64,000 bases of DNA from an uncultured Candidatus Saccharibacteria bacterium (lineage in GTDB: Bacteria > Patescibacteriota > Minisyncoccia > Phycocordibacterales > SBAW01), in NCBI GenBank assembly GCA_964650645.1, contig CAZYUH010000001.1:283032-347031 (forward strand), in the 5' to 3' direction. The notes beneath the pieces are model-generated. The model did no database searches. It was not told the origin of the DNA and saw only the letters and a program-made list of their open reading frames with translations. Positions 3,448 through 39,561 of this stretch are shown one piece after another; position 1 is the stretch's first letter, and each line of letters starts with the position of its first letter. A program made the position numbers and the translations under genes.

Positions 3448-3506
3448 TGGGTGCTGTAACCTATTCTTATTAATTACGCGGACCTTAACGCCTCTGTTTT
3501 ACCAAA

Positions 3507-3977
3507 CTATCGGATTGACGCAAGGCAGGTAATCCCCACGGCTATGGCATCGAGCTCGTCGTCGAGGCGCTTGCCCGGCTGCATGCCCACGAGACGCGGG
3601 ACCATGAGCGCGATGCCCGCCTTGTCGCTGCGCCCGTTGCCGGTAATGGCGACTTTTACCTGGAGCGGCGTGTACTCGTGCGCCGGGAGATTGCTGCGGG
3701 CGGCGAGGTACAGGAGCATGCCGCGCACCGCCGAGACATTCATCGCCGTTTTCGCGTTGTTCTCGAAATACAGGCTCTCGAGCGCGACGCACGAGGGCGC
3801 CCATGCCGCGATGAGCGATTCCACCTCGCGGCCCAGAATCGCGAGGCGCGCGGGGAAGCTGTCCTTGGCGCTCGTGCGCGCGCATGCGGAGTACAGGAGC
3901 TTCTCCCTCCCGTTCCCCCTCTCCAGCACCGCGATGCCTAAGCGCTCGTAGCCGGGGTCAAAGGCAAGCACTCTCAT
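3507..3977 (-). CDS. ruvC: Holliday junction resolvase RuvC
   Basis: MRVLAFDPGYERLGIAVLE... shows the RuvC catalytic-fold signature. The gene sits in a ruvC-yebC-ruvB arrangement. Confidence 0.85.
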   Translation of the reverse strand: MRVLAFDPGYERLGIAVLERGNGREKLLYSACARTSAKDSFPARLAILGREVESLIAAWAPSCVALESLYFENNAKTAMNVSAVRGMLLYLAARSNLPAHEYTPLQVKVAITGNGRSDKAGIALMVPRLVGMQPGKRLDDELDAIAVGITCLASIR

Positions 3978-3985
3978 GCGGCTTA

Positions 3986-4510
3986 TTATGCCGCATTCGT
4001 ATAAATAGCGTTAACGTCGTCGTGCTCTTCGAGCGCCTCCATGAGGTCGGCGACCTTCTGGGTGTCCTCATCGCTCAGCTCGAGCGGGGAGAGCGGCTCC
4101 AGCGCGCCTTCTGCGTTCTTTGAAAATGCCCACAGCGCGGCGCCTTGCGTGGCCAGCGAGCCGCCGTGCAGCGACAGAAGATGCTTGAGTTCCTGCACGG
4201 TGCGGTTGCGGTTGTCGGTCATCGCCTCTATCACCATTGCGGTGCCGCCCGGGCCGTAGGCCTCGTAGGTGGCGGTTTCCATCTCGACCCCGTCGCTCTT
4301 GCTGAGAGCACGCTCGATGTTGTCCTTGGGCATGTTGTCCGCGAGCGCGCGGTCCACCGCATTGCGCACGCCGGCGGCGGTCTTGTCGCCCTTCGCCTTC
4401 TTGAGCTCCACGCCGATGATCTTCACGTGCTTGCTGAAGAGCTTCGCTTTCTGCGCGTCGGTCTTGCCCTTGGTGTGCTTTAATTTCGCCCATTTGGAAT
4501 GCCCTGCCAT
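3986..4510 (-). CDS. yebC: YebC/PmpR family transcriptional regulator (short form)
   Basis: An MAGHSKWAKLKH N-terminus, YEAYGPGGTAMVIEAMTDNRNRT, and its position between ruvC and ruvB. Confidence 0.8.
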   Translation of the reverse strand: MAGHSKWAKLKHTKGKTDAQKAKLFSKHVKIIGVELKKAKGDKTAAGVRNAVDRALADNMPKDNIERALSKSDGVEMETATYEAYGPGGTAMVIEAMTDNRNRTVQELKHLLSLHGGSLATQGAALWAFSKNAEGALEPLSPLELSDEDTQKVADLMEALEEHDDVNAIYTNAA

Positions 4511-5570: not shown

Positions 5571-5820
5571 AAAATAGATAGTATGATAGGCTACCCATTA
5601 GCCAGCACCTCCTATGGGGAGGTCTTTTCTTTTAGCTATTTGGGAGAAGTTCACCATCAAGCAATGCGGCTTAACCGTTTTGGAACCGTACCGAGGACCT
5701 CCTGGCGCCTGTTTTATACATGGACCGCGGGGAGTATCCTTAGATGCGACTTCCGCTTCATCGCTAGTCGATGATGTGCATTGCTTGGCGGTGAACTCTT
5801 CCTGAACCCACTCTACACCC

Positions 5821-5864: not shown

Positions 5865-7535
5865 CTAGTCGAGGTCGACGACGCGCCTCAGTTCCTCGAG
5901 CGAGGTGATGCCGCGCAGGACCTTCATGATGCCGTCCTCCTGCATGGTCGGTATCCCTTGCGGCTTGGCCGCCGCGGCAATCTCGCGCCCCGAGGGCTTG
6001 GAGCGCAGGATGGCCTCTATCGCGGCGTCCATGAACACCGCCTCGAAGATGCCCACGCGCCCCCTGTAGCCGCGGCCGCGGCACTCCGCGCACCCCTCCG
6101 GGTTCGCGTCCCATACCGCGTCGGTCTTCTGCGGCACCAGCGCCTTGTCCGCGACGGTCGCCAGGTGCTTGTCTATCAGCGCCTTTTCCTCGGGCGTCGC
6201 GGGGCGCTCTTTCTTGCACGCGTTGCACAGCGTGCGCACGAGGCGCTGGGCCAATGCGGCGTTGACCGCCGAGGAGATGACCTTCTCGTCGACGCCCAGG
6301 TCGATGAGGCGGGGGAACGAGCCCGGCGCGTCGTTGGTGTGGAGCGTGGAGAACACCAGGTGGCCTGTGAGCGCGGCGTTAATGGCAACCTCCGCCACCT
6401 CGCCGTCTCTAATCTCGCCGACCATGATGATGTCGGGGTCCTGCCTGAGCGCCGAGCGCAATCCTTCGGCGAAGGTGTACTTGCCCTTTTCCACCTGGGT
6501 CTGCACGATGCCCTGCAGGTGGTACTCGATAGGGTCTTCTATGGTGATGATTTTCGAGCCGGGCGAGTTGACTTTGCGCAGGAACGCGTAGAGGCTGGTC
6601 GTCTTTCCCGAGCCGGTGGGGCCGGTCGTGAGTATCATGCCGTTGGGCTTGCTTATCTCCTTTTCAAGCCGCGTCCGGAGCTTCTCGCCCAGCCCGAGCG
6701 CCTCGAGCTCGACGCCTATCGCCTTGGGGTTGAGGATGCGCAGCACCAGGGTGTCCTGGTAGTTGCCCGGGAGTATCGAGGTGCGCAGCTCTATCTCGTC
6801 GCCCTTTATCTTGATGGAGAAGCGGCCGTCCTGCGCCTGGCCCTCGATGTTGAGCTTGAGGCCCGAGAGGAGCTTGAGGCGCGAGAGGATGAGGCGGTAG
6901 GTCTCGTGGTCGAAGGAGAGCATGTCCACCAGTACGCCGTCGAGGCGGTAGCGCAGGCGCACCTTCGCCTCCTCGGGCTCGAAGTGGATGTCGGAGGCGC
7001 CGGTCGAGAGTCCGCCTGCCAAAATAACCTCCAGTATGCGCGTGATGCGGTAGGCTTTCTTGAGCTCGATGGCCTCGGTGATGAGGGTAGTGATGTCCTC
7101 GGGCCCTTTGACTTTTTCAAGGAGCCCCTCGAGCTCCTCGTTTGAAAGCTCGAACACGCCCGCCTTCGTTTCCGTGGCGTAGGAAAGGTCGGCGTAGCGC
7201 TGGTACGCGCGCTTGAGCGATTCAAGCGAGCACATGAACAGCGCGACCTCGTAGCCCTGCTCCTCGAGCTTGCGCGCGAGCAGCTTCACCTTGTCGCTCT
7301 CGGGGGCGCGCACCGCGACCGAGAGCCGCTTGTTGACCTTGCCGAACGCCGCCGCTTCGGCCGCTTTCGCCTCGGCTTCGGGGATGACGCGCAGGGCGTC
7401 GGTGTTCACCGCCACCAGGGAAAGGTCGACGTACTCGACGCCGTACTTCCTCGAGAGCATCTGCGCCAGCTCCTCCTCCTCGCGCTTGCGCAGGAACTCC
7501 ACGCGCTTCTCGCCCTCATCGTTGAATTCCAGCAT
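5865..7535 (-). CDS. Type II secretion / type IV pilus assembly ATPase (GspE/PilB family)
   Basis: Walker A (GPTGSGKTT) and the GspE-type Asp/His boxes. A C-terminal tetracysteine is not obvious. Length is 556 aa. Confidence 0.85.
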   Translation of the reverse strand: MLEFNDEGEKRVEFLRKREEEELAQMLSRKYGVEYVDLSLVAVNTDALRVIPEAEAKAAEAAAFGKVNKRLSVAVRAPESDKVKLLARKLEEQGYEVALFMCSLESLKRAYQRYADLSYATETKAGVFELSNEELEGLLEKVKGPEDITTLITEAIELKKAYRITRILEVILAGGLSTGASDIHFEPEEAKVRLRYRLDGVLVDMLSFDHETYRLILSRLKLLSGLKLNIEGQAQDGRFSIKIKGDEIELRTSILPGNYQDTLVLRILNPKAIGVELEALGLGEKLRTRLEKEISKPNGMILTTGPTGSGKTTSLYAFLRKVNSPGSKIITIEDPIEYHLQGIVQTQVEKGKYTFAEGLRSALRQDPDIIMVGEIRDGEVAEVAINAALTGHLVFSTLHTNDAPGSFPRLIDLGVDEKVISSAVNAALAQRLVRTLCNACKKERPATPEEKALIDKHLATVADKALVPQKTDAVWDANPEGCAECRGRGYRGRVGIFEAVFMDAAIEAILRSKPSGREIAAAAKPQGIPTMQEDGIMKVLRGITSLEELRRVVDLD

Positions 7536-7648
7536 TGCCTATATTGTATACTCCTTTAGATATGGCCATACCGCCCCGCATAGCCGCCGCGCGCGAGACA
7601 TTCCGAAAGACATTACAAGCAGGCCCTCATTCTCCCGCTTTCTAGGCT

Positions 7649-8113
7649 ATGACCCGCGTGGCGCTCTATGAGCTGTCGTATTTCGTCCGCAACATGCTCG
7701 CGGTCCTGGCGCTCGCCGACAGCAAGGACTCCGCGACCGTGCTCGCGCTCAAGGGCGACCTCGGAGCAGGAAAGACGACGTTCACGCAGGCGCTCGCGCG
7801 CGAGCTGGGGGTGCAGGATGCGGTGCAGAGCCCGACGTACGTCCTCATGAAGAGCTACCCGCTGGAGCTTTCCGATGCGGGCGCGAACACGAACAAGAAG
7901 TTCACGAAGCTCGTGCACATAGACGCCTACCGGCTGGAGCGCCCGGAAGAGTTCGACGTCCTGCGGCCGCAGGAGTTCCTTAGCGACCCGTATGCGCTGG
8001 TGGTCGTCGAGTGGCCGGAGAAGCTTGAAGGCAGGCTCCCCAAGCCCGACATGACGCTGGTGTTTTCTGCCGACGGCGCGGCCCCCGACGAGCGGGACAT
8101 CGACGCGGTGTAA
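7649..8113 (+). CDS. tsaE: tRNA threonylcarbamoyladenosine biosynthesis protein TsaE (YjeE ATPase)
   Basis: A P-loop (LKGDLGAGKTTF) and a size of about 150 aa. Confidence 0.8.
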   Translation: MTRVALYELSYFVRNMLAVLALADSKDSATVLALKGDLGAGKTTFTQALARELGVQDAVQSPTYVLMKSYPLELSDAGANTNKKFTKLVHIDAYRLERPEEFDVLRPQEFLSDPYALVVVEWPEKLEGRLPKPDMTLVFSADGAAPDERDIDAV

Positions 8114-12285: not shown

Positions 12286-12376
12286 GTGCGGGCCGGAGCG
12301 TTGTATCGCATTTGCGGCACCGCGAGGCAGGGTCGTGCGGCAATTTGTACGACGGTACAAATTGAACGCCTGACCA
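12286..12376 (+). repeat. Hairpin element, copy A (a degenerate member of the tRNA-associated repeat family)
   Basis: GCCGGAGCG, hp1, CGCGAGGCAGGGTCGTGCGGC, hp2 (AATTTGTACGACGGTACAAATT), then GAACGCCTGACCA. It lies directly after tRNA-Lys and its terminator. Confidence 0.7.
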
Positions 12377-15998: not shown

Positions 15999-16425
15999 CA
16001 AATCAGACACAAAACCAGCCCTGCGGCTGGTTTTGTGCTATTTGTGAGCCGGAGCGATGATTCGCCAGCGGGCGAATCCGCGAGGCAGGGTCGTGCGGCA
16101 ATGCGCGCGACGGCGCGCATTGAACGCCTGACCAAAAGACACAAAGAACCGCCTTGAGGCGGTTTTTGTGCTTATGTGCTGGCCGAAGCCATGTCCTGCA
16201 CTTGCAGGACGGCGAGGCGGGGTCGCGAGGCGTTTGCGCGACGGTGCAAACGAACTCGTGACCACAAAAAACACAAAACCAGCCCTGCGGCTGGTTTTGT
16301 GCTATTTGTGAGCCGGAGCGATGATTCGCCAGCGGGCGAATCCGCGAGGCAGGGTCGTGCGGCAATGCGCGCGACGGCGCGCATTGAACGCCTGACCAAA
16401 AGACACAAAACCGCCTTGAGGCGGT
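15996..16425 (+). repeat. Modular array T-E-T-E-T-E-T. Terminator-like hairpin modules (ACACAAA-stem-loop-stem-TTTGTGCT) alternate with hairpin elements B (16033..16124), C (16165..16254) and B' (16296..16387). Segments 15996..16124 and 16260..16387 are near-identical direct repeats.
   Basis: Each E module is GCCGGAGCG, a variable hairpin with an ACTTGC-type loop, the conserved core hairpin CGCGA-GGCRGGG-TCGYG, a variable hairpin with a GACG-type loop, then GAACNCNTGACCA. Stems differ between copies through compensatory changes. Confidence 0.8.
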
Positions 16426-19175: not shown

Positions 19176-19237
19176 TTAAATGGATATAACTGCGGACTTC
19201 TAAGCCGCTGTTCGAGGTTCGATTCCTCGCGGGGGCA
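19166..19237 (+). tRNA. tRNA-Arg (anticodon TCT)
   Basis: Acceptor GCCCCTG/CGGGGGC, D-arm GTTA-AATGGATA-TAAC, anticodon loop CUUCUAA, and T-arm CGAGG-TTCGATT-CCTCG. The anticodon stem has one A-G mismatch. Confidence 0.75.
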
Positions 19238-19240
19238 CAG

Positions 19241-19560
19241 AAAAAACACAAAGACCTGCCTTGAGGCAGGTTTTGTGCTTTTCTGTGGGGCGCAGCCATG
19301 TCCCGCACTGGCGGGACGGCGAGCCGGGGTCGCGAGGCGTTTGCGCGGCGGCGCAAACGGACTTGTGACCAAAGTACACAAACAACCGCCTTGAGGCGGT
19401 TTTTGTGACTTGGTGCCGGCCGCAGCGGTGTTTTGCACTTGCAAAACCGCGAGGCGGGGTCGCGAAAAGTTTTTGCGACGACAAAAACTTATTCGTGACT
19501 GTAAAGCAGGCGGTCGCCTTAAGCTCAAGGCAGGTTTTGTGCTTTTCTGTGAGCCGGAGC
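19241..19560 (+). repeat. Modular array between tRNA-Arg(TCT) and tRNA-Val: element D (19281..19372), element E (19412..19500), and a truncated copy (19525..19560)
   Basis: The same conserved flanks and core are present. Hairpins are GTCCCGC/GCGGGAC and GTTTTGC/GCAAAAC in hp1, and GTTTGCGCG/CGCGCAAAC and GTTTTTGCG/CGACAAAAAC in hp2. Confidence 0.8.
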
Positions 19561-19613
19561 GCCGCCGCGCGCTGATAGGAAAAAAGCCGCGTTTCTGCTA
19601 AAGTGTGCCGTAC

Positions 19614-19686
19614 GGGCGATTAGCTCAGTTGGTAGAGCAACTCTTTTACACAGAGAAGGTCACAGGTTCGAGTCCTGTATCGCCCA
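19614..19686 (+). tRNA. tRNA-Val (anticodon TAC)
   Basis: Acceptor GGGCGAT/ATCGCCC, D-arm GCTC-AGTTGGTA-GAGC, anticodon loop UUUACAC, and T-arm ACAGG-TTCGAGT-CCTGT. Confidence 0.9.
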
Positions 19687-19696
19687 CAGATGACAT

Positions 19697-19727
19697 GCGA
19701 AAAAACGGCCGGGGGCCGTTTTTTTGC
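19697..19727 (+). terminator. Rho-independent terminator after tRNA-Val
   Basis: GAAAAAACGGCCGGGGGCCGTTTTTTTG. Confidence 0.8.
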
Positions 19728-19734
19728 ATTGTGT

Positions 19735-19870
19735 CACTGTGCGGCGATACAGAACTCGAAAGCGAGCGCGGGCACCCGCCGAGCGCGGCGGGTCGCGCGA
19801 GCAGGGCCGAGAAATTTTTTGCCGCGTCGGCGGCAAAAAATGTTCTTGGCCGAGTCCTGTATCGCGACGG
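19735..19870 (+). repeat. Variant element copy H after tRNA-Val; it ends in a duplicated tRNA-Val 3' segment (GAGTCCTGTATCGC at 19849..19862)
   Basis: A core-like GCGGCGGGTCGCGCGAGCAGGG, the hairpin TTTTTTGCCGC-GTCG-GCGGCAAAAAA, then a 14-nt exact repeat of the tRNA-Val T-arm and acceptor 3' end. Confidence 0.55.
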
Positions 19871-19944
19871 CTGCCTTTGAATGCCTGGCCACGCATGGCC
19901 CCCGCCTCCTCGACTTAAAACTATAAGAACGCTACAGTGCGCGT

Positions 19945-20634
19945 ATGGAGCCCGTAATCCTGTTCGAGGACGACCATCTGGTGGTCGTCGATAAGCCGGC
20001 GGGGATGATCGTATACCCGGACGGCCGGCACGACTATCCGGCCCTTTCGCATTGGCTCGAGGGCCGCTACGGCGAAGGCGGCTTCTTCTTCGTGCACCGC
20101 ATCGACCGCGAGACGTCGGGCGCGCTGGTCGTCGCAAAAACGGAAGAGGCGTTCGAATTCCTCAAGGAGCAGTTCAAGGGCCGGCAGGTCAAGAAGACGT
20201 ACCGCGCGTTCGTGCACGGCACCTTCAAGGAAGAGCGGGGAATAATAGACAAGCCCATAGGCTCCAGCCGCGGCGGCGCGGGCCCGCGCTCGGCCAAGCT
20301 TTCCTACGGGGTGCAGCGCGACGCGGTGACCATGTACAAGGTGCTTAAGAGCCGGCCGCATAGCGGCGGGACGCAGGAGCCTGTCTCGTACGTCGAAGTG
20401 TTCCCCAAGACAGGGCGCACGCACCAGATCCGCGTCCATTTCGCCTCGGTGGGCCGGCCCATCATCGCCGACAGGCTGTACGGCGCCGGCCGCCCCGCGC
20501 TCCTGGGCTTTGAGCGGCTCGCCCTGCACGCGCTTTCCCTGGCAATCATCCACCCGAGCGGCCAGGAGATGGTGTTCAAGGCCCCTCTGCCGCCCGATTT
20601 CGCCGCGGCGGAAGCGCAATTGCAGGGCAACTAG
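19945..20634 (+). CDS. rluA: RluA-family 23S rRNA/tRNA pseudouridine synthase
   Basis: The catalytic motif HRIDRETSGALVVAKT and a length of 229 aa. Confidence 0.8.
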   Translation: MEPVILFEDDHLVVVDKPAGMIVYPDGRHDYPALSHWLEGRYGEGGFFFVHRIDRETSGALVVAKTEEAFEFLKEQFKGRQVKKTYRAFVHGTFKEERGIIDKPIGSSRGGAGPRSAKLSYGVQRDAVTMYKVLKSRPHSGGTQEPVSYVEVFPKTGRTHQIRVHFASVGRPIIADRLYGAGRPALLGFERLALHALSLAIIHPSGQEMVFKAPLPPDFAAAEAQLQGN

Positions 20635-21404: not shown

Positions 21405-21625
21405 CTAACGACACAAAGGCGCTCCCTGCGGAGCGCTTTGTGCGTTAGTGCCGGCCGCAGCGATGTTTTGCACTTGCAAAACCGCGAGGCGGGTTCGCGA
21501 GCGAATTTGGCGACGGCCAAATTCGACTTGTGAACGCAAACACGAATACTTTTGAACGCCTGACCAAAAAGACGCAAAGACCTGCCTTGAGGCAGGTTTT
21601 GTGCTTTAGTGCCCGAGCGAAGCCG
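21405..21625 (+). repeat. Array after tRNA-Leu: a T module, element F (21445..21571, with an extra partial 3' flank), a T module, and a truncated start of another element
   Basis: GCCGGCCGCAGCG, hp1 GTTTTGCACTTGCAAAAC, core CGCGAGGCGGGTTCGCGAG, hp2 AATTTGGCGACGGCCAAATT, then CGACTTGTGAAC ... GAACGCCTGACCAAAAAG. Confidence 0.75.
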
Positions 21626-22658: not shown

Positions 22659-22731
22659 GGTGGTCGTAGCTCAATGGTAGAGCCCTGGTTTGTGGTACCA
22701 GTTGTTGTGGGTTCGAGTCCCATCGATCACC
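22659..22731 (+). tRNA. tRNA-His (anticodon GTG) with an encoded G-1
   Basis: A G at -1 then acceptor GTGGTCG/CGATCAC, discriminator C, anticodon loop UUGUGGU, and T-loop TTCGAGTCC. Confidence 0.9.
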
Positions 22732-22734
22732 CCT

Positions 22735-22766: not shown

Positions 22767-22817
22767 TAAGAGGGCGGTCGAAGCGAGAGGCTTGAGCGTC
22801 TTGCGGTGGGACTCGAA

Positions 22818-22872
22818 AGCCGGAGCGATGCCCTGCACTTGCAGGGTAGCGAGGCGGGCGGCCTGGCCGCGC
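22818..22872 (+). repeat. Partial element copy G after tRNA-His and its terminator
   Basis: GCCGGAGCG, hp1 (CCCTGCACTTGCAGGG), then a degenerate core. Confidence 0.6.
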
Positions 22873-27608: not shown

Positions 27609-28982
27609 TCAGGCGCTTGCCGCCGGACGCTCGACGATGTCCTGCTCGCCCCGCTCGTAATAGAAGCGGTCGCCCTCGGTTTCCATGTAGAGATGGAGGC
27701 CGAGATCGCCGAACTCCTCAAGCATGAGCGCGCCGGTCTGCTGCGCGACGCGACGCATGGTTGCGTGGACGTCCAGCCTGGCGCGCCGCTCGACGAAGTA
27801 CGTCATCGCCGGCAGATCGCCGACTTTCTGGCATGGCACGAGCAAGCCCATGGGGCAATAGTACTGCCGCATGAAATCGTCCGAGAACATGTTTTTTACA
27901 TACCCCATCTGCTGGGCGAGGAACGGGCCTGTCTCGTCCCTGTACCTGTCCGGCAGCTGGCTTAGGTACCATGGCGAGAAGCCGTGGCCCGTCGTAAGGA
28001 GCGGCATGCGCTGAGCGACGGACCTGTGCCGCTGGTCGTCGCGGAACGACCCGAAGTCCAGCGCGTAATTGAACCGCATCGTCCCGCATTCGGCCAGGAA
28101 CTTTGGCAGCTCAGTCTGCTTCGGGCGCTTTGCGAGCAGGTCCCGGTGAGCGGCAAGCATGTCCTTGTCGAACCCCGAGAACGCGCCCGCTACGTCCGGG
28201 GAACCGGATTCCGGAGCGGTGTAGTAATAGGACTCCCTCATCCAGTAGTCGAGATAATCCTCGGTATCCCGGTAGCGCTTCTTTTGGAAGGAGCTCGGAT
28301 ACTTCTCATTCAGCGCGTCCTCGAGCGTCTCGGCGACAATGCGCACTTCCGCGAGCGGATGGTGGCGAAGTCTGTCGAGATGGTCGCTGATGTGCCGCAG
28401 TTCGCCGTGCCATGCGAGATTGGTCGACGCCCCCGCGGGGAGGAAGCCGCGCATGATATCGAAGGAGCGCGCCTTTATGGCCTTCTCGTATATGTCTTCC
28501 TTCTCACCCTCTCGCCGCGGGTGCCGCTGCACGAGCGCGTTCTGGACGACGCCAAGCCCCTGGAGGTAGCGCTGCCGCCATCGCTCGAGGAGCCATTTCG
28601 AGCTTTCCGAGCCCTGGGGATCGATGAAGGGCTGCGTCGCGAAGTCTATGTAGCGGGTCGAGGCCTCCTGCCCGTTATAGAGCATGAAGTCCTGTATCGC
28701 CTTGGCCGCGAGCATCGAAACGCCTTCGATAAAGAGCGTAGTCGAGCCGCAGTCGCCTATGGACTTGTGCCCGTAGCCGACATAGAACCGCGACATGAAC
28801 ATCTCGGGCCCGGATTTCCAGAGCTTCTCGAGATGCGCGCGCAAACCGCCGACCGAGCGCGAATGCAGGGCTTGGAGCATGGCCTCTGCTTCGGCGCCGA
28901 TAACCGCTCCGGTATTGAGCACGAATACTTCGCCGCTGCCGGGAAGGGGTCTTGCTGTGTGAATGAGGTCCTTAACCTGCAT
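27609..28982 (-). CDS. thyX: Flavin-dependent thymidylate synthase ThyX, tandem-domain (pseudo-dimeric) form
   Basis: The N-half carries GHKSIGDCGSTTLFIEGVS...EASTRY and LRxxxxxLAEVR ThyX-like blocks but no RHR motif. The C-half carries FRDDQRHRS, where RHR is present, and LDVHATMRRVAQ. The 457-aa length is about twice a single ThyX. Confidence 0.55.
   Translation of the reverse strand: MQVKDLIHTARPLPGSGEVFVLNTGAVIGAEAEAMLQALHSRSVGGLRAHLEKLWKSGPEMFMSRFYVGYGHKSIGDCGSTTLFIEGVSMLAAKAIQDFMLYNGQEASTRYIDFATQPFIDPQGSESSKWLLERWRQRYLQGLGVVQNALVQRHPRREGEKEDIYEKAIKARSFDIMRGFLPAGASTNLAWHGELRHISDHLDRLRHHPLAEVRIVAETLEDALNEKYPSSFQKKRYRDTEDYLDYWMRESYYYTAPESGSPDVAGAFSGFDKDMLAAHRDLLAKRPKQTELPKFLAECGTMRFNYALDFGSFRDDQRHRSVAQRMPLLTTGHGFSPWYLSQLPDRYRDETGPFLAQQMGYVKNMFSDDFMRQYYCPMGLLVPCQKVGDLPAMTYFVERRARLDVHATMRRVAQQTGALMLEEFGDLGLHLYMETEGDRFYYERGEQDIVERPAASA

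Positions 28983-36096: not shown

Positions 36097-39553
<3,457 letters not shown>

Positions 39554-39561
<8 letters not shown>

Follow-up and report, generated by a model that had tools for sequence, protein, structure and literature searches.

Duplicated 3' segments of tRNA genes that lie next to an intact copy of the gene are the textbook footprint of integration, and the T loop is a classical integrase crossover region at tRNA att sites. In the 64,000-nt stretch of DNA analysed here (the window), the 3' end of an intact tRNA-Val gene recurs a short distance downstream in the same orientation, which raises the question of whether the repeat is the scar of an integrated element or a working part of something else. 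An earlier note had described it as an exact 14-nt duplication: The duplication is real but in fact 15 nt long, and the position given for its second copy (19849–19862) was off by 3 nt. The 14-mer GAGTCCTGTATCGC has two exact plus-strand matches in the window, at 19670–19683 and 19852–19865, and one extra identical base on the 5' side extends the repeat to CGAGTCCTGTATCGC (19669–19683 and 19851–19865), with 182 nt from start to start and 167 nt in between. Copy 1 covers the T loop from C56 to G59/T60, then the T-stem 3' strand, and ends after the first 5 nt of the acceptor's 3' side. In 64 kb, ~1e-4 exact occurrences of a 15-mer would be expected, and the 14-mer at up to two mismatches matches five times in the window versus 0.40 expected, a count reached in none of 100 shuffles; the repeat is not due to chance. 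Near-matches at 28687 and 45171 sit within long ORFs and look like chance matches.

We conclude that the 15-nt repeat is probably the 3' arm of a conserved tRNA-trailer RNA module of ~185 nt in Patescibacteria (Paceibacteria-type CPR), closed by a helix that resembles a tRNA acceptor, and not an integrase att scar. Here A denotes the 3' end of the tRNA gene, T the hairpin that follows it, and A' and A'' the inverted and direct copies of that end, which flank a core of two hairpins (Table 1).

Table 1. Positions in the window of the tRNA-Val locus, its module and related elements.
Feature	Position	Strand	Evidence
tRNA-Val(tac), intact gene	19614..19687	+	ARAGORN; Rfam tRNA 71.2 bits
A, tRNA-Val 3' end from the T loop on, source of both copies	19667-19688	+	sequence
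Direct repeat copy 1, CGAGTCCTGTATCGC, inside tRNA-Val	19669..19683	+	sequence, match search
Hairpin T, here a canonical intrinsic terminator (ACGGCC-ggg-GGCCGT, then T7)	19689..19737	+	sequence
A', inverted tRNA-Val 3'-end copy, TGTGcGGCGATACAGaACTCGAA	19738..19760	+	minus-strand match 19744-19757; fold
Core hairpin A	19761..19804	+	covariance model R1 match 19754-19851, 111.7 bits; covariation
Core hairpin B	19805..19851	+	covariance model R1, covariation
A'', second, direct tRNA-Val 3'-end copy; 3' strand of the closing helix	19851..19865	+	sequence, fold
3' half of a type C element, CGCGACGGctgcctttgAAtGCCTGgCCA, joined to A'' at a common CGC	19863..19891	+	repeat family D10
5' start of a type C element, GCCGGAGCGCCGCCGCGCGCTG, stranded just 5' of the tRNA-Val promoter region	19553..19574	+	repeat family D5
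Segment non-homologous to L001	19696..19821	+	BLAST
Second armed module, behind tRNA-His (22660-22733)	22772..22865	+	sequence; L004 orthologue
Armless canonical (type C) example	16182..16263	+	R1 match, repeats, folds
Further type C elements	12292-12376, 16048-16134, 16312-16398, 19289-19370, 19419-19500, 21454-21535		repeat search, folds

Between the two copies, where a terminator and a hairpin element had previously been described, both are indeed present (the terminator hairpin at ~19700–19727), and the 167-bp interior is non-coding. Overlooked until now was an inverted copy of the tRNA end, one of the five matches to the 14-mer: GCGATACAGAACTC at 19744–19757, with one mismatch, lies within TGTGCGGCGATACAGAACTCGAA (19738–19760), the reverse complement of the T loop, T stem and acceptor 3' strand of tRNA-Val plus CA (in tRNA numbering T54 through A73 and CA, apart from a single inserted base and a single mismatch). 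The same string is identical to the plus-strand text of an inverted tRNA-Val in L005. The flanks of hairpin T extend the palindrome that links A to A', and the resulting long hairpin (19667–19760) was flagged by an Rfam E-value scan. In the predicted fold, A' supplies the 5' strand of a closing helix and pairs with A'', and the two conserved hairpins complete a three-way junction; the segment 19735–19875, with the inverted and direct copies as its closing helix, folds at -84.7 kcal/mol (z = -7.8). Core hairpin A comprises GC, a GA/GA internal loop, a stem of 4–5 bp, an internal loop, a variable 7-bp stem, its loop and an AGCAGG linker, and core hairpin B is invariant at its base (GGCCGAGAA/TTCTTGGCC, including a G.U pair and one bulged G) and has a variable upper stem whose loop is GTCG in the window copy and GACG in most copies. 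Downstream of A'', the window continues with GACGGCTGCC (GACGG..., a type C fragment), not with CCACA, and because the remaining tRNA end does not come next, the second copy cannot be an intact displaced tRNA 3' end. The second copy in L013 does run on into the remaining tRNA end and the native flank, and A'' measures 19 nt there versus a truncated 15 nt in the window genome.

The same arrangement recurs behind many other tRNAs. Scanning genome contigs with the core pattern returned 38 stretches, 37 of them from Patescibacteria MAGs, and a covariance model, R1 (hairpin A with the GA/GA loop, linker, and hairpin B with loop GACG), has 66 matches in 45 related loci. A same-strand tRNA lies within a few hundred nt upstream of 36 of the 43 instances, which together cover 15 isoacceptor types, and the distance from tRNA to core is 101–130 nt in all but three of these 36 (typically ~104 nt). 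The order is tRNA (A), hairpin T, A', core, A'' at all loci. Behind tRNA-Leu(CAA) the module is orthologously retained in seven genomes, and copies behind different tRNAs of one genome have common cores and locus-specific T hairpins and arms, L030 and L033 included. The isoacceptors show a bias towards Leu and Ser tRNAs.

At each locus the arms match the neighbouring tRNA. A'' aligns to its own tRNA end with a mean local-alignment score of 14.6, compared to 6.9 against other isoacceptors, and for A', aligned to tRNA ends in reverse complement, the corresponding means are 14.3 and 7.9; the longest exact A'' runs reach 19–20 nt, and A':A'' duplexes from the same locus average -21.6 kcal/mol versus -15.5 for pairs drawn from different loci. 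A' follows the T-loop variants ACTCGAA, ACTTGAA, ACTTGCA and AATCGAA, and a lineage-specific change in a T-stem pair of the L013 tRNA-Val is also present in its 19-nt A''. Two other origins of A' were ruled out. It is not an internally deleted tRNA copy with the 5' strands of the acceptor and T stems as its source: A' includes the complete T loop in reverse complement and follows the variants of that loop, and at the position of G3:U70 in the tRNA-Ala of L022 it has A, not G. Nor is it a retrovirus-like primer binding site copied from mature tRNA, since A-T-A' forms one continuous palindrome that runs through the gene's trailer (CAAAA...) and has no complement of CCA. A sizeable share of loci have a degenerate A' (e.g., L021, L013 and L049), and because mismatches between the arms show no bias towards G.U (~17 G.U versus 13 A.C), copying, and not selection on RNA pairing, may be what maintains the closing helix.

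The core, in contrast, has G.U and U.G in ~83 cells of its helices and A.C or C.A in 4, as read on the tRNA-sense strand, with one G.U invariant. RNAalifold proposes 40 pairs, 25 of them with compensatory changes; 97.4% of the cells in the core alignment are paired, versus 85.1% in shuffles (none of 500 reached 97.4%), and 17 pairs change on both sides, versus 4–9 with the partner slid. Sequence and structure of the core are conserved over order- or class-level diversity, an invariance that is partly a product of the search pattern used. Together, and as part of the conclusion stated above, these patterns make it probable that the structure of the core exists at the RNA level, on the tRNA-sense strand.

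At least one copy has the features of a transcription unit. In L029, a stand-alone copy with no tRNA within 8 kb, a promoter-like TTGAAA-16 nt-TGgTACAAT directly adjoins T on its upstream side, and A'-core-A'' ends in GGCACCA, followed by a hairpin with a T run. The stand-alone copies L029 and L025 encode CCA, as do copies behind tRNA genes that encode their own CCA; the window copy has none. The proposal that a terminator always lies 3' of A'' was dropped on testing, and since a terminator directly follows A'' in only 5 of 41 copies (versus 26 of 410 random windows), the 3' end of the transcript is undefined at most loci. A simple promoter scan of the locus detected no promoter for the window module, and this copy may be silent, because its hairpin T is a strong terminator.

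The module belongs to a superfamily of hairpins in which we name the armed elements type V and the armless ones type C. R1 matches the window's canonical repeats over its full length at 27–34 bits (E 1.7e-5 to 5e-4), with matches to type C at 16174–16263 (34.2 bits, E 1.8e-5), 19411–19500 (34.3 bits) and 19279–19370 (27.5 bits); judged by these matches, the armless repeats are homologous to the core of the armed variant. The ACCA at the end of the repeat family had been likened to a tRNA 3' terminus. In the canonical repeats, the GACC within ...CTGACCA pairs with GGTC, both in folds and in R1, as the 3' side of the helix at the base of hairpin 2, and is no free tail; the idea holds in spirit for the armed variant, whose stand-alone copies end in an acceptor-like strand plus CCA. 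In the second armed module of the window, the inverted tRNA-His 3'-end copy is split into GGGCGGTCGA and GGTGGGACTCGAA by an inserted hairpin of 23 nt; its type C-like core is truncated and A'' is lost. Its full orthologue (L004, 4690–4838) has kept both arms around an armed type C-like core.

Comparison across strains, named beforehand as the check for insertion, revealed empty, occupied and replaced alleles at tRNA-Val. RluA begins 1–3 nt after an identical or near-identical tRNA-Val in L010, L095, L074 and L104 (empty sites), L013 has a fuller copy with a 19-nt repeat, and in L001, with flanks 97–98% identical, 182 bp consisting of another terminator and a type C element take the place of 19696–19821. 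The earlier note had regarded its reading as lost if, besides an absence of such polymorphism, no other copy had flanking direct repeats; other copies are in fact flanked by repeats of the 3' end of their own tRNA. Further rearrangements comprise tandem module arrays in L032 and L015, a core-deleted remnant in L013 in which A' is joined directly to A'', a T1/T2 rearrangement at the tRNA-His locus and a dispersed copy in L028, and many copies are eroded or fragmentary. Because the tRNA-Val 3' end is widespread, a metagenome scan with it mostly gave unrelated taxa, and was informative only for L071, L095, L074, L101, L104 and L105. Searching with the neighbouring cyclic phosphodiesterase gene yielded no empty-site relative of the recently shared L030/L033 cores, the sole homologue being that gene.

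These alleles could also be expected of a mobile, non-autonomous DNA element with tRNA 3' ends as its integration sites, for example as a small, possibly single-stranded circle T-A'-core-A in which the A'/A duplex mimics the 3' end of a tRNA gene, a host or trans-acting recombinase exchanges strands with that gene, as with the attP of CTX-phi or IMEX, and the core is the recognition site of a protein. A circle recombining within A predicts the order seen at every locus; empty versus occupied sites with an insert bounded by the repeat, the tandem arrays and dispersed copy, the common cores behind different tRNAs of one genome and the inner boundary of the repeat in the T loop also fit. However, we regard such an element as unlikely: A fixed attP cannot account for arms specific for 15 isoacceptor types, T varies between core-sharing copies (L030 and L033), and the G.U asymmetry and compensatory changes of the core indicate selection on a tRNA-sense RNA, and a stand-alone copy has a putative promoter, CCA and terminator. 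Moreover, Pfam identified no integrase, transposase, recombinase or reverse transcriptase in the 29 genes surrounding the L001 locus or in 20 further large ORFs of the window, nor was a Rep found among them, and the core pattern had 0 matches in viral contigs.

It is still less probable that the modules are a neutral by-product, in which template switching or fold-back replication at a palindromic terminator and T arm produced the copies, the hairpins being functionless selfish or junk repeats and the window copy a decaying one. The continuous A-T-A' palindrome, which includes the trailer and not CCA, is what copying at the DNA level predicts, and the absence of G.U bias among arm mismatches and the many eroded or fragmentary copies agree with it; against it stand the conservation of the core, with compensatory changes, at order- or class-level diversity, its invariant G.U pair, bulged G and GA/GA loops, the retention behind tRNA-Leu(CAA) in seven genomes and the putative stand-alone transcription unit of L029. 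A classical attL/attR scar, left by a tyrosine-integrase prophage or island that entered the T loop and 3' end of tRNA-Val and was later almost wholly deleted, would explain the duplicated segment from the T loop beside an intact tRNA and an interior polymorphic between strains, but is very hard to credit given that the same ~185-nt interior, with its structured core and inverted copy, lies behind 15 isoacceptor types in 37 MAG stretches at a constant ~104 nt from the tRNA, that the second window copy continues as GACGG... and not as a tRNA end, and that no integrase was found among the 29 genes and 20 large ORFs. The claim of a site-specific integration footprint thus survives to the extent that the repeat marks DNA inserted beside a tRNA; it fails on the missing recombinase, on an interior that is a conserved module and on the inverted copy, which is integral to that module and is not a product of simple integration.

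We return to the conserved trailer module as the favored reading. In it, A' covers T54 through the discriminator and the first trailer bases, while A'' starts near C56 and runs past the discriminator by C or CA; the predicted A'/A'' helix reproduces a tRNA acceptor stem stacked on the T stem and closes the three-way junction with the core hairpins. The module would be transcribed as the 3' trailer of the tRNA or, in some genomes, from its own promoter, and the tRNA-like closing helix could let RNase Z, RNase P and the CCA-adding enzyme set its ends. Recombination between the direct repeats A and A'' could lead to loss, tandem duplication and rearrangement and would keep A'' equal to the tRNA sequence, while template-switch correction within the quasi-palindromes A-T-A' and A'-core-A'' would keep A' matched. 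On the same reading, the window copy is probably a partly eroded member of the family, with an ordinary terminator as T, A'' shortened to 15 nt through its fusion with a type C fragment, and an interior swapped in the sister strain.

The element is apparently undescribed to date and widespread in Patescibacteria. Our literature search, sequence strings included, retrieved no published description of the module; Rfam 15 at gathering score reported only tRNAs in the whole 64-kb window, and at E<=10 on 19230–19950 only sub-threshold chance matches (the best, mir-2733, at 27 bits versus a threshold of 73). ARAGORN and the Rfam tRNA and tmRNA models called genuine tRNAs only and left the module unrecognised. 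The core does not fit hammerhead, HDV-like or twister ribozymes, as judged by eye. Tentatively, and with about even expectations that stop short of favoring it, we propose a new class of element in Patescibacteria: an RNA core behind tRNAs that acquires inverted and direct copies of the stretch from T loop to 3' end, and so a locus-specific mimic of the acceptor and T stems with an N-C(CA) end, which may be processed like a tRNA into a small RNA that could serve as decoy, regulator, primer or charged carrier, or whose arms may be a target-copying insertion device. In both versions, no described RNA family or mobile element works alike. If so, a conserved RNA module missed by annotation is common in a large bacterial radiation about which little is understood, and it rewrites its own closing stem to match the neighbouring tRNA. 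Are RNase Z, RNase P and the CCA-adding enzyme then recruited to a non-tRNA, and perhaps also, in view of the Leu and Ser bias, those synthetases for which the anticodon does not matter? What mechanism copies the target sequence into both arms, and is this a new, integrase-free route for small elements into tRNA loci? The module accounts for "tRNA 3' end duplications" in CPR that would otherwise be taken as prophage scars, and R1 can be used to annotate such modules.

Several known systems share part of this architecture. TIGR arrays of TIGR-Tas systems, reported in CPR bacteria too (PMC12045711), are likewise tandem structured RNA units that match both strands of a target, but module units are 85–185 nt long and their variable parts are paired rather than single-stranded; identity with TIGR-Tas was rejected on this difference in architecture (PMC12045711), on box C/D motifs, none of which were seen by eye, and on the lack of a Nop-domain Tas gene among the 29 and 20 annotated genes and ORFs. 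REP/BIME and MITE-like repeats (ERIC, Correia, BOX) are also short, multi-copy, hairpin-forming and intergenic, often co-transcribed, with tandem and fragmentary copies. Unlike in these, the terminal inverted repeats of the module are copied from the adjacent tRNA and not constant across copies, its "target duplication" is 15–22 nt and always a tRNA 3' end, with no short fixed length as in MITE/TIR elements, and it is strictly tRNA-associated, in a single orientation.

The folded attP of CTX-phi and IMEX has inverted half-sites, comparable to A' and A'', that lie ~90–100 nt apart and fold into a target-like duplex, and it results in the same integrated order. However, the target of the module is a tRNA end and not dif, its arms vary with that target, and it shows no phage genome, replication genes or sign of Xer, and no matches in viral contigs. 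Integrase attL/attR sites have in common with it a direct repeat from T loop to 3' end, next to an intact tRNA and bounding extra DNA, and empty and occupied alleles; the module differs in an interior of ~185 nt that is conserved, structured and non-coding instead of cargo, in its integral inverted copy, in being one family with arms matching each of 15 isoacceptor types, and in that no integrase was found.

A similar genomic setting is found in tRNA 3'-trailer RNAs and dicistronic tRNA-ncRNA genes, in which a structured RNA directly follows the tRNA on the same strand, as in the module, which RNase Z could release by cutting at the tRNA 3' end. E. coli 3'ETS-leuZ is a functional RNA made from a tRNA 3' trailer. 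Plant tRNA-snoRNA genes processed by RNase Z are among those cited in the literature (refs 66-67 in PMC12045711). Those trailers, however, are without copies of the tRNA end and do not form a repeated, rearranging family. In its predicted form the module resembles tRNA-like RNAs, namely the tRNA-like domain of tmRNA, the bacterial Y RNA YrlA (PMC4201824) and viral TLS: The acceptor-like helix predicted for it would likewise be built from 5' and 3' strands, with a tRNA-like arm that bears a foreign domain, and some module copies encode N-CCA. The module departs from them in having many copies per genome, outside any Ro, SmpB or viral context, in a 90-nt core that replaces the T loop, and in a helix that copies the neighbouring tRNA instead of carrying one fixed identity.

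The 3' end of tRNA-Val(tac) recurs downstream of the gene as the earlier note had described, but the identity covers 15 nt rather than 14 (CGAGTCCTGTATCGC, 19669-19683 and 19851-19865), and the second copy of the 14-mer (GAGTCCTGTATCGC, first copy 19670-19683) lies at 19852-19865, not 19849-19862. With up to two mismatches, the 14-mer has five matches in the window against 0.40 expected (five was reached in 0 of 100 shuffles), one of them on the opposite strand (19744-19757), within an inverted copy (A') that is absent from the earlier note. Folding of 19735-19875 gave -84.7 kcal/mol (z = -7.8), and in this predicted fold two internal hairpins are enclosed by a ~15-bp helix between A' and A'', the second of the direct copies.

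Features of the tRNA-Val and tRNA-His loci, and full-length matches of R1, the covariance model of the armed (type V) core
Feature	Position	Remark
5' start of a type C element	19553-19574	upstream of tRNA-Val
tRNA-Val(tac)	19614-19687	
A', inverted copy, TGTGcGGCGATACAGaACTCGAA	19738-19760	reverse complement of tRNA positions T54 (T loop) to discriminator plus the next CA
Type C fragment	19863-19891	fused to A''
Second armed module, eroded orthologue of the L004 copy	22772-22865	behind tRNA-His, 22660-22733
R1 match	19411-19500	34.3 bits, E 1.7e-5
R1 match	16174-16263	34.2 bits
R1 match	19279-19370	27.5 bits

The gene downstream of tRNA-Val encodes an RluA-family pseudouridine synthase, whose homologues bear names pointing to Patescibacteria (Ca. 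Paceibacterota or Adlerbacteria), and we built an allelic series from contigs with RluA relatives. Presence/absence polymorphism among related strains, to which the earlier note had looked, is found in the form of empty, occupied and replaced alleles. The window's allele is also that of L002, and L004 (RluA 93%) has one of the same type; in L001 and L003, whose flanks are 97-98% identical to the window, a non-homologous 182-bp segment with a different terminator and a canonical two-hairpin element replaces 19696-19821, TGAGTCCTGTATCGC-GACGG being kept and the inverted arm absent. L011 (RluA 84%) combines a canonical element with 11-12 nt left over from the repeat. The most complete form among the alleles is that of L013 (RluA 82%), where the second copy, AGAGTCCTGCATCGCCCACA, agrees with the 3' end of that genome's tRNA-Val exactly over 19 nt (GAGTCCTGCATCGCCCACA), spanning a lineage-specific T-stem change (CCTGC for CCTGT) and the full CCCACA. 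L010 (RluA 87%) is an empty site, reading tRNA-Val ...CCCACA-ct-ATG(RluA), as are L095, L074 and L104 from a metagenome scan, the tRNA-Val of L095 being identical to the window's. Given these empty sites, direct abutment is likely the ancestral state. The ~257 nt separating tRNA-Val from RluA in the window are inserted DNA. In L005 (RluA 85%; GCA_040384045.1), tRNA-Val is inverted at the same locus (5875-5948, opposite strand), separated by 9 nt from tRNA-Arg(tct) before it and by 52 nt from RluA after it, without a module; this single-tRNA inversion may be related to the palindromic A-T-A' arrangement of the family, described below. Elsewhere in L005, tRNA-Leu(gag) is preceded by an AT-rich insert (7290-8030, with a run of N) that starts with a fragment like the 5' part of tRNA-Leu, contains an ORF-like stretch and could be an intron or homing-endonuclease remnant. 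An unrelated metagenome contig (L083, 4078-4174, minus strand) has a partial second tRNA-Val 3' half 56 nt downstream of the tRNA, without the hairpin core, and this duplication is of a different kind.

From the junction and second hairpin of the core, in which AGCAGG joins hairpins A and B, we derived a search pattern (AGCAGGGCCGAGAAA N6-24 GNCG N6-24 TTCTTGGC) and ran it over 185,579 species genomes. It matched 38 stretches, 37 of them in Patescibacteria MAGs (labelled Adlerbacteria, Kaiserbacteria, Yonathbacteria, Nomurabacteria, Parcubacteria, Paceibacterota, Minisyncoccia or 'Saccharibacteria') and one a chance match inside a Sinorhizobium coding region. A same-strand tRNA stood upstream of the AGCAGG motif in 36 of 43 instances, at 101-130 nt with three exceptions, and the remaining instances were mostly contig ends or stand-alone copies. 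These tRNAs are of 15 isoacceptor types (Val-tac, Val-gac, Leu-gag/caa/taa/tag, Ser-gct/cga, Ala, Arg, Tyr, Ile, Asn, Trp and Glu), with Leu, Ser and Tyr accounting for 23 of the 32 scored loci. Every locus reads, in order, the tRNA 3' end from the T loop onward (A), a hairpin (T), A', core and A''. As for flanking repeats at other copies, raised in the earlier note, A'' is a copy of each own tRNA's 3' end, usually starting at C56 or R57 and running through the discriminator to one further C or CA, with longest exact runs of 19-20 nt; A' holds the T loop in full as its reverse complement and follows the loop's variants (ACTCGAA, ACTTGAA, ACTTGCA, AATCGAA, GGTCGAA). Alignment of A'' to its own tRNA end scored 14.6 on average vs 6.9 for other isoacceptors (95th percentile 12), that of A' to the reverse complement 14.3 vs 7.9, and A':A'' duplexes averaged -21.6 kcal/mol for own vs -15.5 for non-own pairs. 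At seven tRNA-Leu(CAA) loci, T-stem differences between lineages are mirrored in both arms. The main rival explanation, a small mobile DNA element whose paired arms mimic its target, predicts the same gene order but is weakened by arms this target-specific.

It is also weakened by covariation of the RNA type. RNAalifold predicted 40 pairs in the 38-sequence alignment, 25 with compensatory changes; in a core-only alignment, paired cells reached 97.4% vs 85.1% in column shuffles (observed value reached in 0 of 500) and 39-50% with partners slid, and 17 core pairs were changed on both sides vs 4-9 in slid controls. G.U/U.G exceed A.C/C.A cells by ~83 to 4 in core helices, a bias not seen in the arms (~17 vs 13 A.C). 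Hairpin B has an invariant lower stem (GCCGAGAA/TTCTTGGC) that includes a bulged G and a G.U pair, the invariance being in part imposed by the search pattern; conserved beyond the pattern are GAAAGCGAGCGCGGGCACC, GGTCGCGCG and GAGCGACGGCGA, and the core retains two GA/GA internal loops and a GACG loop. The core is a conserved structure of a single strand, the tRNA-sense one. The GA/GA loops are symmetric in armed copies, one at the hairpin A base (window 19763-19766 with 19798-19801) and one below the hairpin B GACG loop (apex in L029 and L036; replaced by Watson-Crick pairs in the window copy), and may represent a k-turn-like protein-binding motif built of tandem sheared pairs. In L033, hairpin A of the tRNA-Asn module holds an additional hairpin (3474-3510), and immediately downstream (3668-4183) lies the gene for an RNA-end enzyme, a cyclic phosphodiesterase/2'-5' RNA ligase-like protein (PF13563, PF07823); this adjacency may be coincidence. 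No Rfam family matches the element, the core pattern was absent from the viral contigs scanned, and no description was found in the literature searched.

By the R1 matches, the window's canonical (type C) elements are armless homologues of the armed core, with their hairpins 1 and 2 equivalent to A and B. The ACCA of their 3' flank, once likened to a tRNA terminus, is not a free tail, since the GACC in ...CTGACCA is base-paired to GGTC at the foot of hairpin 2. Intermediate forms are an armed copy with the GGTC/GACC base behind tRNA-Ile (L025) and a type C-like core with both tRNA-His arms complete (L004, 4690-4838). In the orthologous copy in the window, a 23-nt hairpin has been inserted into the inverted tRNA-His 3' end; the type C-like core behind it is truncated, and A'' is missing. 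L101 combines an AT-rich, highly divergent core with unchanged architecture and an A'' exact over 19 nt, suggesting a superfamily broader than the search pattern. The window also holds an exact 139-nt direct repeat (16007-16145 and 16271-16409, 264-nt period), in which a terminator and two canonical elements are duplicated; L001 lacks one unit, and such arrays therefore expand and contract between 98%-identical strains.

Tandem arrays of T-A'-core-A'' occur in L032 and L015, and a dispersed copy in L028 retains the last 7 nt of tRNA-Tyr. The tRNA-His locus is empty in L008, has only A' joined to A'' in L013, and reads A-T1-A'-core-A''-T2 in L004, T2 being the hairpin directly after the tRNA in the window. 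Cores of same-genome copies behind different tRNAs were more alike than average, at 0.87 (L023/L049) and 0.81 (L019/L031) vs a mean of 0.69, and hairpin B is identical in L030 and L033, with T and arms locus-specific in all these pairs. Arrays, losses and shared cores fit A/A'' recombination, which would cause loss and duplication and would homogenise A''; gene conversion or movement of the core would fit them as well. Because A-T-A' is a single continuous palindrome through the gene's trailer, without a complement of CCA, the copying template was DNA or a primary transcript rather than mature tRNA.

The window copy is a partly eroded family member. Its T is an ordinary, strong terminator in place of the family hairpin, its A'' is cut to 15 nt at the CGC shared with the loop side of the fused type C fragment, its interior is swapped out in the sister strain, and a promoter scan of the locus found none recognisable. 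Elsewhere in the window, a class I aminoacyl-tRNA synthetase (36097-39558, plus strand; Ile/Leu/Val/Met type, 1154 aa) has a histidine-phosphatase domain (PF00300, residues 514-679) inserted within its catalytic domain. Neither integrase, transposase nor reverse transcriptase was found among the 29 annotated genes around the locus and 20 further large window ORFs. The lack of a recombinase there further weakens the mobile-element explanation and counts against the classical integrase footprint at tRNA-Val that had been proposed from the duplicated end; such a scar is also poorly compatible with the recurrence and conservation of the element. A purely neutral by-product fits the same recurrence and conservation poorly.

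Some copies stand alone. In L029 (Nomurabacteria), with no tRNA within 8 kb, a promoter-like TTGAAA-16 nt-TGgTACAAT (10 of 12 matches) ends 6 nt before T, and A'-core-A'', ending in GGCACCA, is followed by a hairpin with a T run; L025 and L035 have similar copies with Ser-like arms and encoded CCA. Such a module looks like an independent RNA gene with T internal, a picture that is not cleanly general, as a clear terminator right after A'' was seen in only 5 of 41 copies vs 26 of 410 random windows. The stand-alone modules of L025 (~6730-6900, minus strand), L035 (~1760-1950) and L029 (~5700-5800, minus strand) have in common a conserved upstream region with a long hairpin (GCCGAGGCAGGGCGAA ... 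TTTCGCCCTGCCGAGTCCGC), which suggests that several genomes share an orthologous locus independent of tRNA genes.

On the best-supported reading, the element is an RNA module of the tRNA trailer, closed by a helix that imitates the preceding tRNA in its acceptor and T stems. Going by known tRNA processing, RNase Z would release the module, RNase P would trim it and CCA would be added to its 3' end; recombination and template switching, as in known quasi-palindrome mutagenesis, could maintain the arms. The Leu/Ser/Tyr bias and the encoded CCA of stand-alone copies are leads to function, not results. In the mobile-element explanation, the paired arms would instead serve as a target mimic, in the manner of CTX-phi.
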